Notes under the pieces: generated by a model
What the model was told of the DNA's origin: nothing
Databases searched by the model: none
What the model saw: only the letters and a program-made list of their open reading frames with translations
Shown here: piece after piece, positions 3,720 to 31,426 of the stretch
Position numbering within the stretch: position 1 is the first letter of the stretch
How the letters are laid out: each line of letters opens with the position of its first letter
Assembly: GCA_964648855.1 (NCBI GenBank)
Contig: CAZYLT010000011.1
Location: forward strand, 30,001-62,000
Origin: an uncultured archaeon
Lineage (GTDB): Archaea > Asgardarchaeota > Thorarchaeia > Thorarchaeales > Thorarchaeaceae
DNA length: 32,000 bases
Direction: 5' to 3'
Position numbers and translations under genes: made by a program

Positions 3720-3936
3720 GTGAAATCTCTCCACTGGGTAAATCCAGCTCGATATATTTAGTTGAGCGTGACTCATATAGATTTCGTTTAATATGGATAC
3801 AGCGCATACCATCAGCTCTGACGAAAGATAAGAGAATTAATCTCCCTTTTCCTAGAATACGAACCGCATCTTCCTATTTGTCAGGTCACAACACTTTTCT
3901 TGATACCCGCGGCGATTTGAATTGGATGTTTACAAA

Positions 3937-5205
3937 TTGGCAGATATTACTTTCTTAGGAGCCACAAAGGAGATTGGGAAGGCTGGCTATCTTCTAGAAG
4001 AACAAGATGAAACCCTTCTAGTTGATTATGGTGTGAAGTTTGGTAACCCACCAACATTCCCCGATATGGTTGATACACGCAATCTTCAAGGAGTGGCTCT
4101 CACTCATGCACACTTAGATCACACAGGTGGGGCACCATGGATTCTCTCAAAGAATCCCCAACTCTCATTGCTCTGTACTCCAGCTACACGTGATATAGTT
4201 ACTCTCCTTGTTCACGATATGTACAAGATTTCGCGAGGAAGGTTACCTTTCTCGAAGAAGGACTTGGCCCGCGTCAACAGACAGTGCCAACCATTGGCAT
4301 ATGAAGAAACCATGCCCATCGGCCGCCATTATGAAATGACTTTGTTTAATGCCGGTCATATCCCCGGAAGTGCCATGGTATCCGTTAGATATGATGGCAA
4401 ACGTATTCTATTCACAGGCGATTTTAACGCAACCGAATCGAGATTATGTGCTGGAGCTCGGAACAACCTTCCAAAGCATGACTTTGTTGTTACTGAGAGC
4501 ACATATGCTAGAAGAATAAATCCCGCCCGTGAGGAGATTGAACAAGACCTTGTAGATACGGTTGTTGAAACTGCCGAGAACGGGGGCACTGTTCTTATCC
4601 CTGCGTTTGCTGTGGGCAGAAGTCAAGAGGTTATGTGTATTCTAGAGAATTATGGTGTACTGGATAATTTTCCAACTCATGTTGATGGTATGGCGAGAGC
4701 TGTAAACAAAATTCTCCTCAAACATCCCGAGTATGTTGGAGCTCCCAGAGATTTCGAAAGTGCCATGAAGAAGACTCATGCGATTCGTAACAATAGGGAC
4801 CGAAACGCAGCTGTGTCACCTGGAAATATTATCATATCCCCTGCAGGAATGCTCAAGGGCGGTGCTTCACATATTTATTTCAAGAAGGTTCATGACGATC
4901 CTCGGAACGCCATTGTATTGGTGAGTTTTCAAATACCTGGGACGCCTGGGGCCGAGTTGCTAGCAAAGAACATGGCAACTGTGGGTAACAGGGTGTTCAA
5001 GGTCACTGCCAAGGTTCGTTATCACCATCTCAGTAGCCACTCTGATGCAAATGGAATGCTGGAAAAGCTATCAGGAATACCCGGAGACCCAGAGTTCTTC
5101 CTGATACATGGAGAACCCGAGTCGTGCGAAGCCCTTGCTCAGAAACTGAGAGAACTAGGACGCAGGGCTACTGTTCCGGAAAGAAATGAAACGTATCAAG
5201 TCTAA
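3937..5205 (+). CDS. Beta-CASP metallo-beta-lactamase ribonuclease (no N-terminal KH domains)
   Basis: FLGA..EIG, THAHLDH, AGHIPGS, TGD, ESTY, PAFAVGRSQE, SSHSD and IHGE motifs. Probable TTG start at 3937. Confidence 0.92.
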   Translation: MADITFLGATKEIGKAGYLLEEQDETLLVDYGVKFGNPPTFPDMVDTRNLQGVALTHAHLDHTGGAPWILSKNPQLSLLCTPATRDIVTLLVHDMYKISRGRLPFSKKDLARVNRQCQPLAYEETMPIGRHYEMTLFNAGHIPGSAMVSVRYDGKRILFTGDFNATESRLCAGARNNLPKHDFVVTESTYARRINPAREEIEQDLVDTVVETAENGGTVLIPAFAVGRSQEVMCILENYGVLDNFPTHVDGMARAVNKILLKHPEYVGAPRDFESAMKKTHAIRNNRDRNAAVSPGNIIISPAGMLKGGASHIYFKKVHDDPRNAIVLVSFQIPGTPGAELLAKNMATVGNRVFKVTAKVRYHHLSSHSDANGMLEKLSGIPGDPEFFLIHGEPESCEALAQKLRELGRRATVPERNETYQV

Positions 5206-5887: not shown

Positions 5888-6757
5888 CTAGACCATCTCA
5901 TCTAATAATCTGGCAATGTCACTGGGTTTCTTGGCAACCTCGACTCCAGCTTTATTGAGAGCTTGAATCTTACTAGCTGCCGTCCCAGTGCTACCGCTGA
6001 TAATGGCTCCTGCATGACCCATCCGCTTTCCCGGTGGAGCAGTTCTGCCAGCTATGAACCCTACAACCGGCCTGTCATAATGGTCTTTGATGTAGGCGGC
6101 TGCTCTCTCTTCAGCATCGCCACCAATCTCTCCCACCAGAACTAGTGCCTTCGTTTCTCTATCTTCCTGAAACAGTTTCACCGCCTCAATGGGTGTCAAT
6201 CCCACGCATGGGTCTCCTCCTAGACCAATAGCTGTTGAAATCCCCAAATCTTCGTTTGTCATGCCAGCGGCGATTTCATAGGTAAGAGTTCCACTGCGTG
6301 ACATGAGGCCAACTTCTCCATGCGAGAAGACATGGCCGGGCATTATCCCTAGCTTTTGTTTTCCTCCTGGCGTGATAATGCCTGGTGTGTTGGGTCCAAT
6401 CACAGTGACCCCTCTTCTCTTAGCAGCATGAATCACTTTGATCTCGTCTTTCACTGGAACATGCTCAGTAATCACCACTACGGGATCTAGTTCAGCAGCA
6501 ATTGCTTCTAGTGCTGCGTCAGCTGCAAAGCGAGCTGGAACAAAGATGACTGAGGAATTCACTTCATGATTCTCTTTCGCCTGTTTCACACTGTCATAGA
6601 CCGGTATACCATGAACTTCCTGTCCAGATCTTCCAGGGGTGACACCAGCAACGACATTTGTGCCATACTCTAGCATTGCACCCGCATGGAATGTCCCTTG
6701 AGAACCCGTTATCCCTTGAATGAGGACTCTTGTATCTTTATTGACCAGTACTGCCAT
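5888..6757 (-). CDS. sucD: Succinyl-CoA ligase alpha subunit
   Basis: QGITGSQGTFH, GVTPG, IGPNTPG, SRSGTLTYE, GEIGG and RMGHAGAII (phospho-His) motifs. Confidence 0.97.
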   Translation of the reverse strand: MAVLVNKDTRVLIQGITGSQGTFHAGAMLEYGTNVVAGVTPGRSGQEVHGIPVYDSVKQAKENHEVNSSVIFVPARFAADAALEAIAAELDPVVVITEHVPVKDEIKVIHAAKRRGVTVIGPNTPGIITPGGKQKLGIMPGHVFSHGEVGLMSRSGTLTYEIAAGMTNEDLGISTAIGLGGDPCVGLTPIEAVKLFQEDRETKALVLVGEIGGDAEERAAAYIKDHYDRPVVGFIAGRTAPPGKRMGHAGAIISGSTGTAASKIQALNKAGVEVAKKPSDIARLLDEMV

Positions 6758-7903
6758 CTAACTCTCCTCCTTTACTAGTTCAACAACCTTCGCAGCTGCC
6801 TCTTCCATCGTTTGCAGGAAGGGAATTCCAGCTTCATTTAGTATCCTCTGCCCTTCTTCTTCATTCGTTCCAACCATTCTGATTACCAAGGGCACCTCTA
6901 TTTCCCTTTCTTCTCGTGCAGCAACTATTCCTTTTGCAACCTCATCACAACGGGTTATACCTGCCATGATATTGACTAGGATTGCCTCCACTTTGTCATA
7001 CATCAACGCAATCTCAATGCCTCTCTCAACTCTCTCAGCATCAGCGCCTCCTCCAAGATCCAGAAAGGTACTGGCATCTCCTCCATGCAGAGCTACTGCA
7101 TCAAGAGTTGCCATGGTTAGTCCAGCCCCATTACAGATACAAGCAATGTTACCATCGAGTTCAACATATGCCATTCCTTCCTGTGAGGCCATTCGTTCAC
7201 GTTCATTCTGTTCGGCTTGTTTCCTATCGAGCTTGTCAATAAGCTCCCGATGACGATAAAGCGCATTGTCATCTATGTTTAGCCTTGCATCTGCGGCAAG
7301 AAATTCTCCATCGGTGGTAAGTATGAGCGGATTAATCTCGGTCAGTTCCACATCGTATTCCTGGACTATATTCCATAATGTTCTGAAGAATCCAGCAAGC
7401 TTGATGATTTGTTTTCCTGAGAATCCCATATCTATCGCCATTTGTTGAGCCTCGTAGGGCTGAAATCCCATCAAAGGATCTACATGCTTTTTGACGATTT
7501 TTTCAGGACTCTCCTCGGCAAGCTCTTCAATTGACATTCCCCCTGCTGAGCTGCCAATCACGACATACTTACGTTGATTTCTGTCAATAGTAATTCCTGC
7601 ATAGATCTCCTGTTCAATGTCAAGTTTCTCTTCAATCAATATCGCTTCAACAGGCAAATCATTAATTCTCATCTCAAGTATCTCTTGAGCGTACTTCGCA
7701 GCTTCGTCAGGTGTATCGGCAAATTTGATACCTCCAGCCTTTCCTCTTTTACCTGAGAGTACCTGTGCTTTCACGACTACAGGTTTTCCAATCTCACTGG
7801 CAACCTTCTTGGCTTCTGCAGGCGTGGTCGCTACACCCCCAGCAGGAGTTGGCATCTTAAAAGACCGGAAGATATCCTTTGCTTCATGCTCGAATAGCTT
7901 CAT
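6758..7903 (-). CDS. sucC: Succinyl-CoA ligase beta subunit
   Basis: MKLFEHEAK, VVKAQV..GKRGKAGG, EINPL, DDNALYRH and NGAGLTMATLD motifs. Abuts sucD; start revised to ATG 7903. Confidence 0.97.
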   Translation of the reverse strand: MKLFEHEAKDIFRSFKMPTPAGGVATTPAEAKKVASEIGKPVVVKAQVLSGKRGKAGGIKFADTPDEAAKYAQEILEMRINDLPVEAILIEEKLDIEQEIYAGITIDRNQRKYVVIGSSAGGMSIEELAEESPEKIVKKHVDPLMGFQPYEAQQMAIDMGFSGKQIIKLAGFFRTLWNIVQEYDVELTEINPLILTTDGEFLAADARLNIDDNALYRHRELIDKLDRKQAEQNERERMASQEGMAYVELDGNIACICNGAGLTMATLDAVALHGGDASTFLDLGGGADAERVERGIEIALMYDKVEAILVNIMAGITRCDEVAKGIVAAREEREIEVPLVIRMVGTNEEEGQRILNEAGIPFLQTMEEAAAKVVELVKEES

Positions 7904-7980
7904 CGCTTTCATTCCTTCTTGGAGAATGGGGGTTGAGTATTTTGTCCCCCGGGTTAAGCCGCCTTCGCGAACTGCCACAT

Positions 7981-7987: not shown

Positions 7988-10219
7988 TTAACTGAAATGG
8001 CTAAGTAGACGCATAAACCCTTCCCGTAATGATTGGATCTCTTGCCTTAATTGCTTTCTCTCTCTGCTCGTCAGCCCAAGAATAATGGAACCGACATAAT
8101 GAAGTTCCTCAATGACATTCTCCAATATCCCTGGAGAGTCATCCTCACAATATGGGATTCCTTTGTCATGATTCTCTTCTGACGAGGCAATCACTCTTCT
8201 TACCAAGTCCCTTGGTGCCCCAGTCCGGTCTATAACAACCCGTTCTAAAAGGTCGTTCAAATTCACTCGCTTCTTTGAGATAGCTTTAGTGACCAGTTTG
8301 GCATCTTCGACTGGTACTCCCAGAATCGCAACACTCTCTCCAAGGCTAGTGCATTGGAGACCGTCTTTTGCCTTTCTGATGAAACTTTCTGATTCAAGAT
8401 TATCTATAACTTCCAGCCCAGTCAGCGCTTGTTGTACCACGGCAGTGGCATACGTCGATGCCTCCGTCTTTAAGGCAGTCCTAATGAACTTCACAATATG
8501 CTTGCAGAGCCTATGTCTTTTCGCACCTTGATATTTCCAGGCTTCACATGTACATGAAATGCCCTCTCCCGCTCTGAGCAAGACATGATGCCATAAATCT
8601 CTTGATTGACTATGCACTAGCCCTTCAATTTTGTCTGGGCGTGTACTGACAATCCTAACGCTCTTTTCTGGAATCTTCTCTGCCCTCTCACGAGCAGCCT
8701 TTGTTGATCTTAGAGCAAGAAGGGTGTCAACTGATGCCTCGGGCTCAATATACCCTTTCCCAGTCAACTTCGCAGCCGCCCTGTTACTATGTGCCCAGAA
8801 TGTTCGGTCCAGAATACCAAAGGGATCCGTTTTGTCTCCGAAGGCCGCACATAACTCTGCAAGAATGAGATCCTGCATGTGTTCGCTCTCATCAAGCATG
8901 CTATCCACTTCTCCTGCTCTTGGAGCGATATTACCCACTGGATCTGTGATGAAGTACCTATTAATCACACGTGTCTTTTCTGATTCCGAGTCGAGTACAA
9001 TAATTCCAAATGCTTCAATATCCAGACCCCGTCTTCCTGCAGATCGGAGTATTTTGTCCAGTTGCCATTCAGATAGCATTGTGAGACCCTGCGTGACCGG
9101 TTGTGTCTCCTTTTCCTGCATGAAAACACCGAGTAGAAACACCACTGTGGCTCTCAATCCGCTAGCTATGGCGAATTTTGATGGCATAACCAAGACAGGT
9201 AGAAGCCTATCCTCCCACGCCTTAGATATGGCACGTCTCTGTGTTCTAGAAACACCCTGATGAAAGAATGCTATGCCCCTAGAAATTGTCCGTCCAAGAC
9301 TCTTGGTCATCTTACAATCCTTGTAATGACCAGTGACCTCTTCAGCCAGTTCCCTGAGTTCATCTCTATGTCCCAGTGTCAAAGGCAGCTCGAGCCTTAC
9401 ACCGCCGTTCTTCCCGACCCCAGCCAAGCCTAAAGCCAAGTGGTTTGCCATATCCCGATTCGGAGTCATAATCATGATTTGTCCCCCGCGTCGATGGACG
9501 AACTGAGTCAAATCCTTGAGTGACTCGTTCATATTCTCGAATACCTTTACGCTGAATATTCTCTTGACATCCGCCTTTTCATCTACAATCGGAGTTGCAT
9601 CAAGCCAGGTAACGAGTTCGACCAAATCCTCTACTGGGGGACAAATGGCTATATGTTGTAGGTCCCGCCCTCTTCGCATAATTGTCACGAGTATTGTTTC
9701 AAGGCGGGCACCTAAGTCCGGTTCGCCTATGAGGTCAAGACGCTCCGTGAGCACACACTGGATATCATTAAGAATCTCTGGATGAGTGCGAAGAGCAATT
9801 CCTAGGGCACTATATGTTGCTACGATAACTCTACCAGTAATCTCCTTAGTATCTAGGGCGTCCCTTCTTCTCGAAATCATTTTGGCTTCTATGCCCAACC
9901 GCGTACAGTGCCTACTCACCGATCTGAATCTTTTCTCAGCCTGATGCGGGTTGGGAGACAAGACAATTGCTTTTGTTTTGAAGTTCGATGTCACTCTATG
10001 GAGAAGTCCTACCTCGGCTATCTTATATGCCTCATCATAGTCATAGGTAACAAGAATTTGACTGTCCCCAATTGAAAGCCCCTCCCGAACAGAGGCTCTT
10101 TGGAAATTAGTGAGACTAGCCCAACCTTCTCGCCTCAATATCTCTAGTAGACGAGGCGAAATCCGAGCTAACTCGAGTTCCCGCAGACTACTCAAATCAT
10201 ATCCACTCCCTGACTTCAA
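7988..10219 (-). CDS. Degenerate Ski2/Hel308-like SF2 helicase-fold protein with a SWIM zinc finger
   Basis: Q-motif LTNFQ, RVIVATY, LIGEPDLGARLETIL, GIAFFHQGVS..QR..I, AGRRGLD and CTSLG follow Hel308 order, but Walker A and DExH are absent. SWIM is CTC-x12-CKH. Confidence 0.8.
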   Translation of the reverse strand: MKSGSGYDLSSLRELELARISPRLLEILRREGWASLTNFQRASVREGLSIGDSQILVTYDYDEAYKIAEVGLLHRVTSNFKTKAIVLSPNPHQAEKRFRSVSRHCTRLGIEAKMISRRRDALDTKEITGRVIVATYSALGIALRTHPEILNDIQCVLTERLDLIGEPDLGARLETILVTIMRRGRDLQHIAICPPVEDLVELVTWLDATPIVDEKADVKRIFSVKVFENMNESLKDLTQFVHRRGGQIMIMTPNRDMANHLALGLAGVGKNGGVRLELPLTLGHRDELRELAEEVTGHYKDCKMTKSLGRTISRGIAFFHQGVSRTQRRAISKAWEDRLLPVLVMPSKFAIASGLRATVVFLLGVFMQEKETQPVTQGLTMLSEWQLDKILRSAGRRGLDIEAFGIIVLDSESEKTRVINRYFITDPVGNIAPRAGEVDSMLDESEHMQDLILAELCAAFGDKTDPFGILDRTFWAHSNRAAAKLTGKGYIEPEASVDTLLALRSTKAARERAEKIPEKSVRIVSTRPDKIEGLVHSQSRDLWHHVLLRAGEGISCTCEAWKYQGAKRHRLCKHIVKFIRTALKTEASTYATAVVQQALTGLEVIDNLESESFIRKAKDGLQCTSLGESVAILGVPVEDAKLVTKAISKKRVNLNDLLERVVIDRTGAPRDLVRRVIASSEENHDKGIPYCEDDSPGILENVIEELHYVGSIILGLTSRERKQLRQEIQSLREGFMRLLSHFS

Positions 10220-10937: not shown

Positions 10938-11678
10938 ATGGCTTTCGTAGCAACCAAAGACAGTAGTTTCGAAATAATCCTGAAAAAAGGATTCAAAGTA
11001 AAACCCGGCTCCATATTCATATCTGGATTTCATGGGCTTGGAGAGGTCGGTTTCCTTAGTACAGCACATCTCACACGTACTCTTGAGGCTGAACGTGTGG
11101 GTTTTATCAAGAGTGATATGCTGCCGCTTTTCGTGTCTATGGAAAATGAGAAGATGGTGCTTCCATTTGAAATCTATTTCTATGAAGAAAAGAACATGAT
11201 ATTTTTCGTTCCACGATTTCAACCTCATCAATCTGAACAATGGGGATTCGTTGAGCATCTAGCAAACTGGATTATGGAACAGAAATTCGACGAAGTTCTC
11301 CTGTTGGGTGGACTCGATGCTAGCTTCAAAGAAGGCGAAGAAGATATGCGTACGGTTCCGACTAACGCATATAGACCAAAGCTTGACAAATGGAATGTAC
11401 CAATATTGGAAGAAGGTCTCTTTGTAGCTGGCCCTCTAGCCTTGCTATTGGCAAATTTGGAGATGAATGAATGTCCAGCCATAGGATTACTTACTTATGC
11501 CACCAGAGGGCGTCCAGATCCCCGCTCTGCAGCGAGTATGCTTGAAAAAATCAATGATGTGTTTGGTGTTTCAGCAAACGTGGATCAACTCATCGAAGAG
11601 AGCAAAGAGATTGAGCGCCTGGAAAAGATGAGGAAATCAATCGAGTCCGATAGTGACCCATCGCAGATGTACCTGTAA
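10938..11678 (+). CDS. PAC2-family proteasome assembly chaperone/activator (PbaA/PbaB-like)
   Basis: GFHGLGEVG, LLGG, GPLALLL and PDPRSAA motifs; C-terminal HbYX tail (MYL). Confidence 0.92.
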   Translation: MAFVATKDSSFEIILKKGFKVKPGSIFISGFHGLGEVGFLSTAHLTRTLEAERVGFIKSDMLPLFVSMENEKMVLPFEIYFYEEKNMIFFVPRFQPHQSEQWGFVEHLANWIMEQKFDEVLLLGGLDASFKEGEEDMRTVPTNAYRPKLDKWNVPILEEGLFVAGPLALLLANLEMNECPAIGLLTYATRGRPDPRSAASMLEKINDVFGVSANVDQLIEESKEIERLEKMRKSIESDSDPSQMYL

Positions 11679-11690
11679 GGCCGGAAGAAG

Positions 11691-12233
11691 CTAGCCCAGT
11701 TTCCTGATGTACCAGCCGATATCGATGAGATTCTTGGCTACTAGGTCCTCAGCCTTCAGATAGGGAACTCGTGTTGCATCGACCGACAGTTCAGCAAGAC
11801 CCAATACGTCATCTCTTTCATTCAGAACTATGACTCGCTGACGTCTTTTCAGTGACTGGTCAATGTCAATCACTGACTCCTTAATGATACTCCTACCATA
11901 AGTGAAAGATTCTGCAGCGATTTGTTTGACATGAATTAGATTCGACGTCAATTTTGCCAGTGGATTAAGAATAGGCAAGCTAAGTCTTAACCTACTCTGA
12001 TAAACATCAACAAACCATAGTCCAAGAGAATAGACATCGAGGCCCGAGATGGTATTTTCGAAAAACCTCATCCACTCTCTGGGAACAAGGTAAATTGAAT
12101 CTAGTTGTTCACCTTCAATTTTTGCGGGTACCCGTTCTTTGATCAAAGCCTGTGTGACACCATCTCCGAATTCTTTGTCAATCTGAGCTGCAATCTTGTC
12201 CCAGTATGTAGACTCGACCAACTCTAACTCCAT
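11691..12233 (-). CDS. Nip7-like PUA-domain ribosome biogenesis protein
   Basis: AAESFTYGRSIIKESV, VIVLNERDDVLGLA and KNLIDIGWYIR resemble the Nip7 C-terminal PUA domain. Abuts the Nop2 gene. Confidence 0.85.
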   Translation of the reverse strand: MELELVESTYWDKIAAQIDKEFGDGVTQALIKERVPAKIEGEQLDSIYLVPREWMRFFENTISGLDVYSLGLWFVDVYQSRLRLSLPILNPLAKLTSNLIHVKQIAAESFTYGRSIIKESVIDIDQSLKRRQRVIVLNERDDVLGLAELSVDATRVPYLKAEDLVAKNLIDIGWYIRKLG

Positions 12234-13211
12234 TTACAAAGCACCTACCTTCCTCATCCTGCAAATGAAGAATCCTTCCGTCCCATCCTTTTGAGGGAGA
12301 AACCGCTTTGCCATTTTCAGTGATTCGTCCAGTTGTACACCATAAGGCTGTGGATATCCCGGTGACCCAAAATCCTGAGTTATAGGTCCAATCTCCATCT
12401 CTGGATGATTTCGCAGAACATTATCCACAACAAACTCGTTCTCCTCTGGTGCAATAGAACAGGTTGCATACACCAGCACTCCTCCTATTCTAAGCTTCTC
12501 CACGGCAGCCTCAAGCATATCTCCTTCTCTGGTTGCACAGTAGCGAACATCAGCCATGGACTTGCTCGTCTTTCTGGTTGGGTCAATTGGAATGAGGCCC
12601 TCTCCAGAGCACGGCGCGTCCAGCAGGATTCTGTCGGGCTCAATATCAATCTCTTCCAATCTTCTTGCATCGCCTCTTATGACAAGTGAATTTGTAACTC
12701 CACAACGTTGGATATTACTCTCAAGACTCTGAATCCTTTTTCGATCATTTTCTATTGACACAACAATGCCAGTATTGTTCATACGTTGACCAATGTGAGT
12801 AGTCTTTCCTCCCGGAGCAGATGCAAGATCCATAATCACTTCACCAGGCTGCGGGTTTAGGACATCTACCACGGTCATGGATGGAACTCCTTGGACATAG
12901 TAGTGACCTAACATATGTTCCATCAAGGCACCCGGGGATAATCCTTGGAAATCTGCAACGTAGCCAAGGTCTATCCAATCAATCGGATCTAAATAGACCC
13001 CCTTCTCACTAAGACGCTGGATTGTCGTTGAAGGGGATGCAAGCAAGGGATTCAATCTAATGGCAGTAGGAATGGGTTTCTCGCAGGCTTCAAGGAAAGC
13101 GATTGTTTCAGACATTCCCCATAGCGTGAGATAGCGCTCCAACATATAGGGAAGGTACCCCCACTCTTCCGCAATCTCTTTTGCCTGTTCTCTTATCTTT
13201 CTACTCGCCAA
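12234..13211 (-). CDS. Nop2/RsmB-family RNA m5C methyltransferase
   Basis: GHYYVQ, DLASAPGGKTTH, ILLDAPCSGEG, VYATCS..PEENE and EGFFI motifs; both catalytic Cys present. Confidence 0.95.
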   Translation of the reverse strand: MASRKIREQAKEIAEEWGYLPYMLERYLTLWGMSETIAFLEACEKPIPTAIRLNPLLASPSTTIQRLSEKGVYLDPIDWIDLGYVADFQGLSPGALMEHMLGHYYVQGVPSMTVVDVLNPQPGEVIMDLASAPGGKTTHIGQRMNNTGIVVSIENDRKRIQSLESNIQRCGVTNSLVIRGDARRLEEIDIEPDRILLDAPCSGEGLIPIDPTRKTSKSMADVRYCATREGDMLEAAVEKLRIGGVLVYATCSIAPEENEFVVDNVLRNHPEMEIGPITQDFGSPGYPQPYGVQLDESLKMAKRFLPQKDGTEGFFICRMRKVGAL

Positions 13212-29216: not shown

Positions 29217-31426
29217 ACAAAGAAACTAATGGCGCTCCAAAGCACCCAAATGACAGTCACAATCGCTTCTCCGGCGACGACCCCACTCAAAATCCTACTT
29301 ACTCGCTCGTAGCGAGGCGCGTCTTTCGCAATACCACATGAGTCTATTTCATTCGAACCGACCGTCTCTTTACTCATTTGGTAGTTAATACATCCACCAA
29401 TGAGCATGGCCGCTGTTGTTGCCGGCGGAATCAAGAGGCCAACTGCAAGGCTCATTGGGCTCATGCCCCTTCTGTTTAGTTCTCTTCCTGCCAAGAATCC
29501 TATTGCTCCAAACACAAAGAGATAAGCAAAAGCGAGAAGAGGATGAAGATTAGGAAGTTGATCAAGACCTGGCATCTCCAGATTGCCCAGGCCTGCCAGA
29601 CTGATAACCAGGAATCCAAAAAGTTGTGCTGCAGGACTTGGAAAATCGGCTCCGCCAAACCCGTAGATAAGAAAAATCATATACGTAATCAATGACCCTA
29701 CTAACGTTCCAAGAAGGGCTCCAACAAACACTGCTTTGAAAATATCCCTCCCATTTACTCCAGTTAGGGTGCCCAGTTTCAAGTGAACCAATACTGCGAT
29801 GGCAGCATCCTGAAGTGCACCTAACATCGACATGAAAGTGATAATTGCTGCAAATGATATCCGGAACAAGAGAATTGCTGGAATTGCCACCATGTCGGAA
29901 AAATAGCCAGCAAGCATTCCGGTTTCACTTATTGATCTTGCTGTGAAATAAGCAGAAACCAGTGCTAGGGGTGAGCCAATTGCAAATAGGAGCCAATGTA
30001 TTTGCAAACCGGAAAATAGCCTTAACACCCCAAAAACAAGGATTCCAACTGTCATGAATATTAGCATAGAAGTGACAGCAACCCATGGGGGAATCTGCCC
30101 CCTTCTAGAATCCAAGTACGCTCTGGGGTCAGACACCATTGCACGAATCTCCTCTTTTATCGCCTTAATTGAGAATAACTGCCCTCTTACTCTCATGAGC
30201 CTATCAAGTTCAGAGGGCGAATGTGGGTCTTCTATGACTACACCCTGATATTCATTGAATTCCGTATTCTGCTCATTGACCGAACGTTCAAACTCATCGC
30301 GTGATAATTCGTCAGGACTTCTACTCGTGACAACATCCCCAAGAATAATAGATGCAAACACTCCTAGCGCAAGATAGAGAATCTCTGGTCTAGTGAGATG
30401 TTCTCCAAAGGGAATGAATGCAGCACCCTCAATAGCCAGCCATATGACTAGAGAGGCGAGGCTTCCCGCTGCCATGACTAAGACCCGCTTCCATCCAACA
30501 AAGAACCCAATGGCTGCAATTAATGGTGAATTGCTAATCCCTATCCAATCCGGGACAATGGGGTTCACTGCATGAGGAAAAGAGCTGAACGTGGCTGGTG
30601 CTTGTGTTCTAGAACTGACTACATACTCTGCAGCTCGTGTGGCCGCAGTCCAAGATGCCGCAGCTCCAAGGCCTGCTATTACCGCTGTCTTTGTGTCTAC
30701 ATCTGCACCAAGGCAATTGATGCACTCCGCCTGAGGCAAAACTTGCGGCCAGGGCTCATTCATGAATCTATCCCTAAATGGCACCATTAGAATCAGTCCA
30801 AATATCGCGCTCGCTCCTGTCACGAAGGCTATAAATTGATACGTAATTAGCGATGAAGCGATACTCGGCTGAAAAATGGCGATGGCCGGAAAAGTGATTA
30901 GAACGCCAATGGAAACCATGGACGAGCTATTGGCTATAGATACGACCACTGCATTTTCTTCCGGAGTGTATTTTCCAAACATTGTCAAAATCAAGAAGCC
31001 CAGTAATTCCGCCCCAACGAAATAGACAACACCCAGCTTCAGCGCGAGATAAATGCCCAAGAAAGTCATGACTACTCCAACTATAACGCCTGTAGTCAAC
31101 GCTCTCTTAGTCAAGGGAAACTTTGGCTTACTGGTAACAAAACCGTATATTGCCAAGCTACCTGCAGCCATTACAACAATCTCTGAAAACGCACCCAAGA
31201 CTAGCGATAATGAAACATAAAGCACTACTCCTAGGCACAGCAGACCTAGGCTCTTTTTATCAAGGGGCCCCGTAACCAAAGAACCGACCAGAAGCACAGA
31301 TTCGATCACTATTGTGGTGATGACACCATAGTCCGTCCTACCCTGAAAGAGAACGATAAGTGCATAGAAAAGCCCTGCAATATATAAACCTAGCAAGAGA
31401 GCTCGGTCTGACTTGGGCTTCTTCAT
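29213..31426 (-). CDS. OPT/YSL-family oligopeptide transporter
   Basis: LTKRAL..G, YLALKLG, EEN, ETG, FPSPAA and SGVVAGEAI motifs; many TM helices. Confidence 0.85.
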   Translation of the reverse strand: MKKPKSDRALLLGLYIAGLFYALIVLFQGRTDYGVITTIVIESVLLVGSLVTGPLDKKSLGLLCLGVVLYVSLSLVLGAFSEIVVMAAGSLAIYGFVTSKPKFPLTKRALTTGVIVGVVMTFLGIYLALKLGVVYFVGAELLGFLILTMFGKYTPEENAVVVSIANSSSMVSIGVLITFPAIAIFQPSIASSLITYQFIAFVTGASAIFGLILMVPFRDRFMNEPWPQVLPQAECINCLGADVDTKTAVIAGLGAAASWTAATRAAEYVVSSRTQAPATFSSFPHAVNPIVPDWIGISNSPLIAAIGFFVGWKRVLVMAAGSLASLVIWLAIEGAAFIPFGEHLTRPEILYLALGVFASIILGDVVTSRSPDELSRDEFERSVNEQNTEFNEYQGVVIEDPHSPSELDRLMRVRGQLFSIKAIKEEIRAMVSDPRAYLDSRRGQIPPWVAVTSMLIFMTVGILVFGVLRLFSGLQIHWLLFAIGSPLALVSAYFTARSISETGMLAGYFSDMVAIPAILLFRISFAAIITFMSMLGALQDAAIAVLVHLKLGTLTGVNGRDIFKAVFVGALLGTLVGSLITYMIFLIYGFGGADFPSPAAQLFGFLVISLAGLGNLEMPGLDQLPNLHPLLAFAYLFVFGAIGFLAGRELNRRGMSPMSLAVGLLIPPATTAAMLIGGCINYQMSKETVGSNEIDSCGIAKDAPRYERVSRILSGVVAGEAIVTVIWVLWSAISFFV

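Follow-up and report, generated by a model that had tools for sequence, protein, structure and literature searches.

In eukaryotes, helicases of the Ski2/Hel308 type have diversified both by domain insertion, as in the arch of Mtr4 and Ski2, and by inactivation, as in the second, C-terminal cassette of Brr2, which still binds ATP and is fused to an active partner. The closest known relatives of eukaryotes are the Asgard archaea. Pseudo-helicases with a proven non-enzymatic role are, to our knowledge, rare. A survey of archaeal Ski2-like helicases notes zinc only for the zinc-finger domains of Mtr4 and ASH-Ski2, with no SWIM insert (PMC10946056), and neither SWIM-bearing Hel308 proteins nor an ATPase-dead form of these is described in the literature that we searched. 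Here we describe a Hel308-like gene with a SWIM zinc finger and replaced ATPase motifs, located in a 32,000-nucleotide stretch of an uncultured archaeon of the family Thorarchaeaceae (positions 30,001 to 62,000 of contig CAZYLT010000011.1, assembly GCA_964648855.1; hereafter, the window). The source genome comprises 3.1 Mb and is 94.6% complete; the sequencing runs listed for the stretch are microbial-mat DNA runs only, none from RNA. We conclude that the product is probably a pseudo-helicase that arose from a SWIM-bearing Hel308 paralogue specific to the Asgard archaea and that has lost ATPase activity but remains functional.

Hel308 fold and domain layout

The gene occupies an uninterrupted frame of 743 codons on the minus strand, between positions 7988 and 10219 of the window, with zero stops, exactly as originally predicted. 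The AlphaFold2 model of the product, for which 24 orthologues were used as input (pLDDT 76.9, pTM 0.74), is best matched, along the full length, in Foldseek searches by the archaeal Hjm (2zj5, 2zj2) and Hel308 (2va8, 2p6r) structures, with E-values from 1e-23 to 1e-20 and query TM-scores of 0.59-0.64, followed by PolQ helicase, Mtr4, and Brr2 cassettes. The closest solved structures by sequence, Sulfolobus Hel308 (2va8) and Pyrococcus Hjm (2zj2), belong to the same set. A Hel308/Ski2-type fold with tandem RecA-like domains, as had been proposed, is supported by both the model and these matches. The NCBIfam models for Hel308 align with residues 18-485 at E-values from 1e-27 to 1e-29, yet the scores, about 95 bits, lie far below the cut-offs of about 900-1200 bits (94.6 bits against a curated cut-off of 1200 for the Hel308 equivalog NF040935), and the Pfam domains DEAD and Helicase_C have no match in the protein. 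Outside the SWIM insert, which is described below, the layout is as follows.

9590..10132, minus strand: RecA1-like domain, residues 30-210 (sequence relatives, AlphaFold2 model, Foldseek)
8936..9589, minus strand: RecA2-like domain, residues 211-428 (sequence relatives, AlphaFold2 model, Foldseek)
8771..8935, minus strand: first half of the winged-helix domain, residues 429-483 (AlphaFold2 model, profile alignment to Hjm)
8270..8461, minus strand: second half of the winged-helix domain, with the wing and the TSLG helix, residues 587-650 (AlphaFold2 model, profile alignment to Hjm); TSLG itself is at residues 624-627
7991..8269, minus strand: shortened ratchet-like helical domain, residues 651-743, with no helix-hairpin-helix (HhH) domain after it

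The description of this protein as a full-length Hel308 is valid for the fold but not for the length. The HhH domain 5 (HHH_5) has no match in the pseudo-helicase, whose last elements are the ratchet-like helices, and the ratchet domain itself is reduced to about half: in an alignment of the wider-family profile to Hjm, residues 510-573 of the latter, which form the initial half of that domain, largely lack a counterpart. Domain 5 is present in the Hel308 encoded in the same genome as well as in the nearest canonical SWIM-bearing relative (G033). The length lost with domain 5 and half of the ratchet domain is made up by the SWIM insert. In the part of the ratchet that remains, the tryptophan of the ratchet helix is replaced by Tyr708 and the arginine by Asn701.

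Replacement of the ATPase motifs

Alignment to canonical relatives corroborated every replaced-motif reading of the original prediction (Walker A, DExH, SAT, and QMAGRAGR) and added motif Ib to the list.

10025..10051, minus strand: former Walker A (motif I), VTYDYDEAY, residues 57-65; lysine replaced by Glu63
9863..9871, minus strand: former motif Ib, TGD replaced by RRR, residues 117-119; at least 90% conserved
9734..9748, minus strand: former motif II, DEIH replaced by T-E-R-L-D, residues 158-162; R160 and D162 invariant
9635..9643, minus strand: former motif III, SAT replaced by CPP, residues 193-195 (alignment)
9032..9055, minus strand: former motif VI, KILRSAGR, residues 389-396; first arginine of GRAGR replaced by serine

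The Walker A sequence PTSSGKT of canonical relatives corresponds to TYDYDEAY (residues 58-65), which does not conform to the GxGK[ST] pattern; in this segment, D60, E63, and A64 are at least 97% conserved among 22 orthologues thinned to less than 80% identity, and Y65 is invariant among 24 aligned orthologues. Motif II reads (D/E)RLD, rather than DExH, across the pseudo-helicase family (ERLD, residues 159-162, in the present protein). The change of QMAGRAGR to KILRSAGR leaves the second arginine alone in place; G395 is invariant, and so is R396 among the 24 aligned orthologues. The motif Ia sequence PLRALA of canonical relatives is represented by PNPHQAE, the motif IV arginine is absent, and the glutamine of the Q-motif, Q40, is invariant. 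The loss of the motifs is fixed, being common to all 24 orthologues of one alignment and all 61 of another.

The replacement of the Walker A lysine by the invariant Glu63 is paired with the replacement of the catalytic glutamate of motif II by the invariant Arg160. This charge swap could preserve a salt bridge across the emptied site and seal the cleft. The former nucleotide cleft looks remodeled rather than degraded.

SWIM insert in the winged-helix domain

The two halves of the winged-helix domain are separated by an insert that carries the zinc finger.

8462..8770, minus strand: SWIM-bearing insert, residues 484-586, with two helices, a four-strand sheet, and the zinc finger
8498..8554, minus strand: SWIM zinc ligands, C556-x-C558 ... 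C572-x-H574 (Pfam and alignments)

An intact SWIM finger at about 8498-8555, ahead of the TSLG motif, was part of the original prediction and withstood scrutiny: the ligands C556, C558, C572, and H574 are invariant in relatives, including all 25 of a set of diverse sequences. The only Pfam match of the protein is SWIM (PF04434, residues 545-576), with a score of 19.6 bits that is exactly at the gathering cut-off. The insert of about 117 profile positions is located between the residues that correspond to 451 and 457 of Hjm. When modeled alone, the module of about 100 amino acids reached a pLDDT of 86, and the top two structures for it among about 48,000 chains were the SWIM region of ZSWIM8 (Z 7.6, root mean square deviation 2.9 Å, 89 residues) and Shu2, the latter a weak fold match (Z 3.9). 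The ZSWIM8 match stands well above the rows that follow it, which identifies the SWIM fold. Foldseek yielded no significant match for the isolated module, with ZSWIM8 in second place at an E-value of 0.2, and the ESM Atlas search with the module gave no usable match. Mtr4 and Ski2 likewise carry their arch domain as an insertion in the winged-helix domain (PMC10946056), so that the SWIM arm occupies an analogous place.

Conservation, selection, and distribution

More than 120 orthologues are listed, with 48-91% identity and about 735 amino acids each; all those with an organism name come from Thorarchaeota-type metagenome-assembled genomes (MAGs). Within the family to which the window belongs, matches were detected in 24 of the 24 genomes of one sample and 59 of the 59 genomes of another, and the complete matches are single-copy; three of the genome matches, all in fragmented assemblies, are partial or weak. 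Each of the 20 orthologous loci examined has an unbroken frame of about 735 amino acids.

The ratios of nonsynonymous to synonymous substitution rates (dN/dS, Nei-Gojobori) in three close, unsaturated pairs are 0.075, 0.108, and 0.063. By domain, the SWIM module, where conservation of the pseudo-helicase is highest, has values of 0.016-0.024, and the RecA-like domains have values of 0.04-0.14. Among the 22 thinned sequences, 131 positions are at least 97% conserved, and the 15-residue windows with the lowest entropy include the SWIM finger (561-575) and the former motifs II (160-174), V (348-362), VI (394-408), and I (60-74). Judging from the aligned sequences, the old active-site cleft is apparently rebuilt and then frozen because the former motifs are among the least variable stretches. 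The family-wide presence and the strong purifying selection (dN/dS 0.06-0.11) indicate that the gene is maintained and not decaying.

Genes of this family are labeled either 'DEAD/DEAH box helicase' or 'hypothetical protein'. Both labels are wrong.

Origin within an Asgard family of SWIM-bearing Hel308 proteins

A sensitive search combined with a motif scan retrieved many Hel308-like proteins that carry SWIM at the same site together with canonical GKT, DEIH, SAT, and GRAGR motifs; all of these with an organism name come from Asgard archaea. A representative from Baldrarchaeia, for example, has DEAD, Helicase_C, SWIM, domain 4, and HHH_5. In a tree rooted on SWIM-less Hel308, all SWIM-bearing forms, most of which have canonical motifs, comprise one clade (support 100/100), in which the pseudo-helicase belongs to a sub-clade (98/93) with proteins of Odinarchaeia, Ranarchaeia, and Hod-like MAGs. 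The sisters of this degenerate sub-clade (G033 and P0137) have canonical motifs, and the stem branch of the Thorarchaeota proteins is 1.36 substitutions per site long.

Most of the Odin-, Ran-, and Hod-like proteins keep Walker A and have no arginine-finger pair, with motif II variants that include DETY, DDAQ, EECD, and DEFQ and motif III variants that include SSN, SGK, SAN, and SDI. The Thorarchaeota proteins have lost Walker A, motifs II and III, the arginine-finger pair, and the HhH domain as well. The decay thus appears to be stepwise across the Asgard archaea, from canonical sisters through forms with Walker A only to the Thorarchaeota proteins with none of the motifs. The objection that orthologues might keep canonical motifs, raised along with the original prediction, holds only for distant relatives and fails for the 24 and 61 aligned Thorarchaeota orthologues. 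In a second Ranarchaeia member of the degenerate clade (P0278), Walker A is degenerate (SSNRQSKD) and motif II is still DELH, which points to more than one independent path toward inactivation.

Paralogues in the same genome and the possibility of a helicase partner

Canonical SWIM-bearing Hel308 paralogues are found in other Asgard lineages, and one is present in the same genome as the pseudo-helicase. This paralogue (L002:1486-3684, 732 amino acids), with the motifs PTGSGKT, DEVQ, SAT, and GRAGRPG, falls in a SWIM clade other than that of the pseudo-helicase. The SWIM paralogue (L002/L041, contig C3, about 46-64 kb) overlaps by 4 nt an upstream gene of 464-770 amino acids that matches HerA only weakly, and is flanked by Rad51-family genes at distances of about 6 kb on the upstream side and about 3 kb on the downstream side. 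The search for an active Hel308 paralogue in the genome also succeeded, with L001 as a canonical Hel308 in which DEAD, Helicase_C, domain 4, and HHH_5 are all present. Nothing ties L001 to the pseudo-helicase.

Given that both candidate partners are encoded in the genome and that Brr2 cassettes are among the structural matches, one can imagine that the pseudo-helicase regulates an active helicase in trans, with L001 or the SWIM paralogue of the recombination cluster as its target; its relation to that target would be like that of the inactive C-terminal cassette of Brr2 to the active N-terminal one. We regard such a role as doubtful. Of the 24 family genomes, all with the pseudo-helicase, about 6 yielded no active SWIM paralogue, among them both members of one genus, which makes obligate pairing of the two proteins unlikely; the genes are never adjacent, and a search among longer proteins retrieved no tandem fusion, although this is weak evidence. 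The pseudo-helicase gene is not adjacent to RadA paralogues, and a complex prediction for RadA (residues 30-341) with residues 429-743 of the pseudo-helicase gave no support, which is evidence neither way.

Gene start and neighborhood

The longest ORF extends upstream of the likely start.

7988..10195, minus strand: pseudo-helicase gene in its probable true extent, 735 amino acids plus stop; the longest ORF reaches the TTG at 10219
10203..10209, minus strand: GGAGTGG, Shine-Dalgarno-like, about 8-10 nt before the TTG at 10195 (read from the sequence)
5888..7978, minus strand: sucC and sucD (succinyl-CoA synthetase), directly downstream; order kept in 20 of 20 family loci
10938..11678, plus strand: PAC2 proteasome-chaperone gene, divergent; a neighbor in 20 of 20 family loci

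The true start is likely the TTG at 10195 because in all 20 orthologous loci a start codon is present at the same place, immediately 5' of the conserved S-S/T-L-R-E-L, and because GGAGTGG lies upstream. The longest sucC ORF (6758-7978, minus strand) opens at the GTG at 7978, and its orthologues align from about residue 24-26; translation probably begins at the M-K-L-F-E-H-E ATG located at about 7900, which would be about 87 nt after the stop of the pseudo-helicase gene and would leave room for a promoter of its own.

The order PAC2 (divergent), pseudo-helicase, sucC, sucD recurs in all 20 family loci. Farther out on the PAC2 side, at 11691-13211 on the minus strand, there is a Nop2/Sun-type RNA m5C methyltransferase followed by a separate UPF0113/Nip7-like PUA protein, a pair that resembles the eukaryotic Nop2-Nip7 ribosome-biogenesis pair. 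On the other side, a few kilobases from the pseudo-helicase, a metallo-beta-lactamase/beta-CASP/RMMBL protein (a CPSF73 or aCPSF-type ribonuclease) is encoded at 3922-5205 on the plus strand. In an Odin-like genome (G026, L039:5986-10164), the orthologue, with Walker A and without motifs III and VI, is followed 28 nt downstream by aconitase. In genomes outside the family (f21), the neighbors of the orthologue are ThiN, PALP, and DUF885. A link to the tricarboxylic acid cycle, with sucCD in Thorarchaeota and aconitase in Odin, possibly due to chance or old synteny, was considered and dropped because the f21 genomes carry ThiN, PALP, and DUF885 instead. A defense role was set aside as well: PADLOC gave only marginal matches to HamB or PDC-M23B (E-values from 5e-5 to 4e-3), which were discounted because they reflect the generic helicase core. 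Altogether, the neighborhood looks like inherited synteny and gives no pathway.

The ribosome-related neighbors (Nop2/Sun, the Nip7-like PUA protein, and r-proteins) would fit a pure protein scaffold off nucleic acid, for example, a ribosome or ribonucleoprotein assembly factor similar to Utp25, for which the SWIM module and the cleft would be docking sites. There is a precedent for an essential pseudohelicase in Utp25 itself (PMC9539457), and several canonical nucleic-acid contact residues are replaced in the thorarchaeal protein. However, the neighborhood link is synteny inside one family, with different neighbors around the Odin and f21 orthologues, and the conserved RRR patch and the retained aromatic Y708 fit nucleic-acid binding, so that we consider this role improbable too.

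Putative function of the pseudo-helicase

The protein has the features that define a pseudoenzyme, namely, the enzyme fold is kept, the catalytic residues are lost, and purifying selection is in evidence. With the motifs in their present state, canonical ATP binding and hydrolysis would be impossible, so that an ATPase-dead Hel308 descendant would act by binding and not by translocating. The conserved RRR patch in place of the TGD of motif Ib could hold the phosphate backbone without ATP, and nucleic acid may still be held by this patch together with the ratchet-helix aromatic Tyr708. The SWIM arm would likely be the adaptor surface, docking either a protein partner or some feature of a nucleic acid. 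Overall, a role as a static binder or scaffold in transactions of DNA, possibly of RNA, appears most likely.

Several points weigh against this interpretation. The inactivity of the ATPase is inferred from the motifs only; DNA or RNA binding may be altered or lost because several canonical contacts are replaced (motif Ia by PNPHQAE and the ratchet arginine by asparagine, with the motif IV arginine lost); and the neighborhood (PAC2, sucCD, and the Nop2/Nip7-like genes) consists of housekeeping genes and points to no pathway. The net charge by domain does not discriminate between dead and active forms.

A more specific version, which we offer as speculation and consider unlikely to hold in full, takes the series of forms in the clade (clade B) as a passage from a motor through an ATP-binding switch to a nucleotide-free clamp; the Thorarchaeota protein would be a locked Hel308 that grips DNA or RNA while the SWIM arm recruits a partner. 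If true, the inactive Brr2 cassette or the arch-bearing Ski2/Mtr4 adaptors would have in this locked Hel308 a counterpart that is archaeal and stands alone.

The high, non-random conservation of the replaced motifs and the invariant Q40 could also be accounted for by nucleotide hydrolysis via a non-canonical site composed of D60, E63, R117-119, R160, and R396. This is very unlikely: no glycine, lysine, or threonine of the P-loop is left, the loop is acidic (D-Y-D-E) and should repel phosphates, and motifs II, III, and VI have changed together. We know of no superfamily 2 enzyme that works without a P-loop. Finally, a decaying, functionless relic or a pseudogene in the making, which the loss of all catalytic motifs and the long stem branch (1.36 substitutions per site) might bring to mind, is hardly credible in view of the selection data, with dN/dS of 0.06-0.11, an intact frame in 20 of 20 loci and about 120 listed orthologues, a match in 59 of 59 family genomes, and 131 positions at least 97% conserved.

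Comparison with known helicases and SWIM proteins

The pseudo-helicase shares with archaeal Hel308/Hjm (2zj2, 2va8, 2p6r) the RecA1, RecA2, winged-helix, and ratchet-helix elements, in the same order and fold, but differs from these enzymes in the replacement of motifs I, Ib, II, III, and part of VI, the presence of the SWIM module of about 100 amino acids, and the absence of the whole of HhH domain 5 together with half of domain 4. The canonical Asgard SWIM-bearing paralogues resemble it in the insert site, a common origin (100/100), a similar length, and frequent loss of HhH; unlike the pseudo-helicase, which has none of these motifs, they keep GKT, DE(I/V)(H/Q), SAT, and GRAGR. In Thorarchaeota, the SWIM paralogues belong to a cluster of recombination genes that also encodes RadA paralogues and a HerA/VirB4-like protein, whereas the pseudo-helicase gene sits beside sucCD.

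Among eukaryotic proteins, the C-terminal cassette of Brr2 is a Ski2-like/Hel308-like structural match that has lost unwinding activity and acts as a platform for regulation and interactions. In contrast to this cassette, the pseudo-helicase has no P-loop and stands alone, and the Odin-, Ran-, and Hod-like intermediates, with Walker A and without arginine fingers, are closer analogues of Brr2 than the Thorarchaeota protein. Utp25, a DEAD-box pseudohelicase of the small subunit processome (PMC9539457), similarly combines a helicase fold and dispensable or lost motifs with a conserved non-enzymatic role, but it does not belong to the Ski2/Hel308 family, is eukaryotic, and lacks SWIM. ZSWIM8 and Shu2/SWS1 share the CxC...CxH zinc finger and the preceding sheet with the insert, but are stand-alone or E3-adaptor proteins, and Shu2/SWS1 bind Rad51 paralogues. 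The Asgard SWIM-bearing Hel308 family encompasses both domain insertion and inactivation within one lineage, and the living intermediates across Asgard classes make the route from motor to scaffold testable with recombinant proteins.

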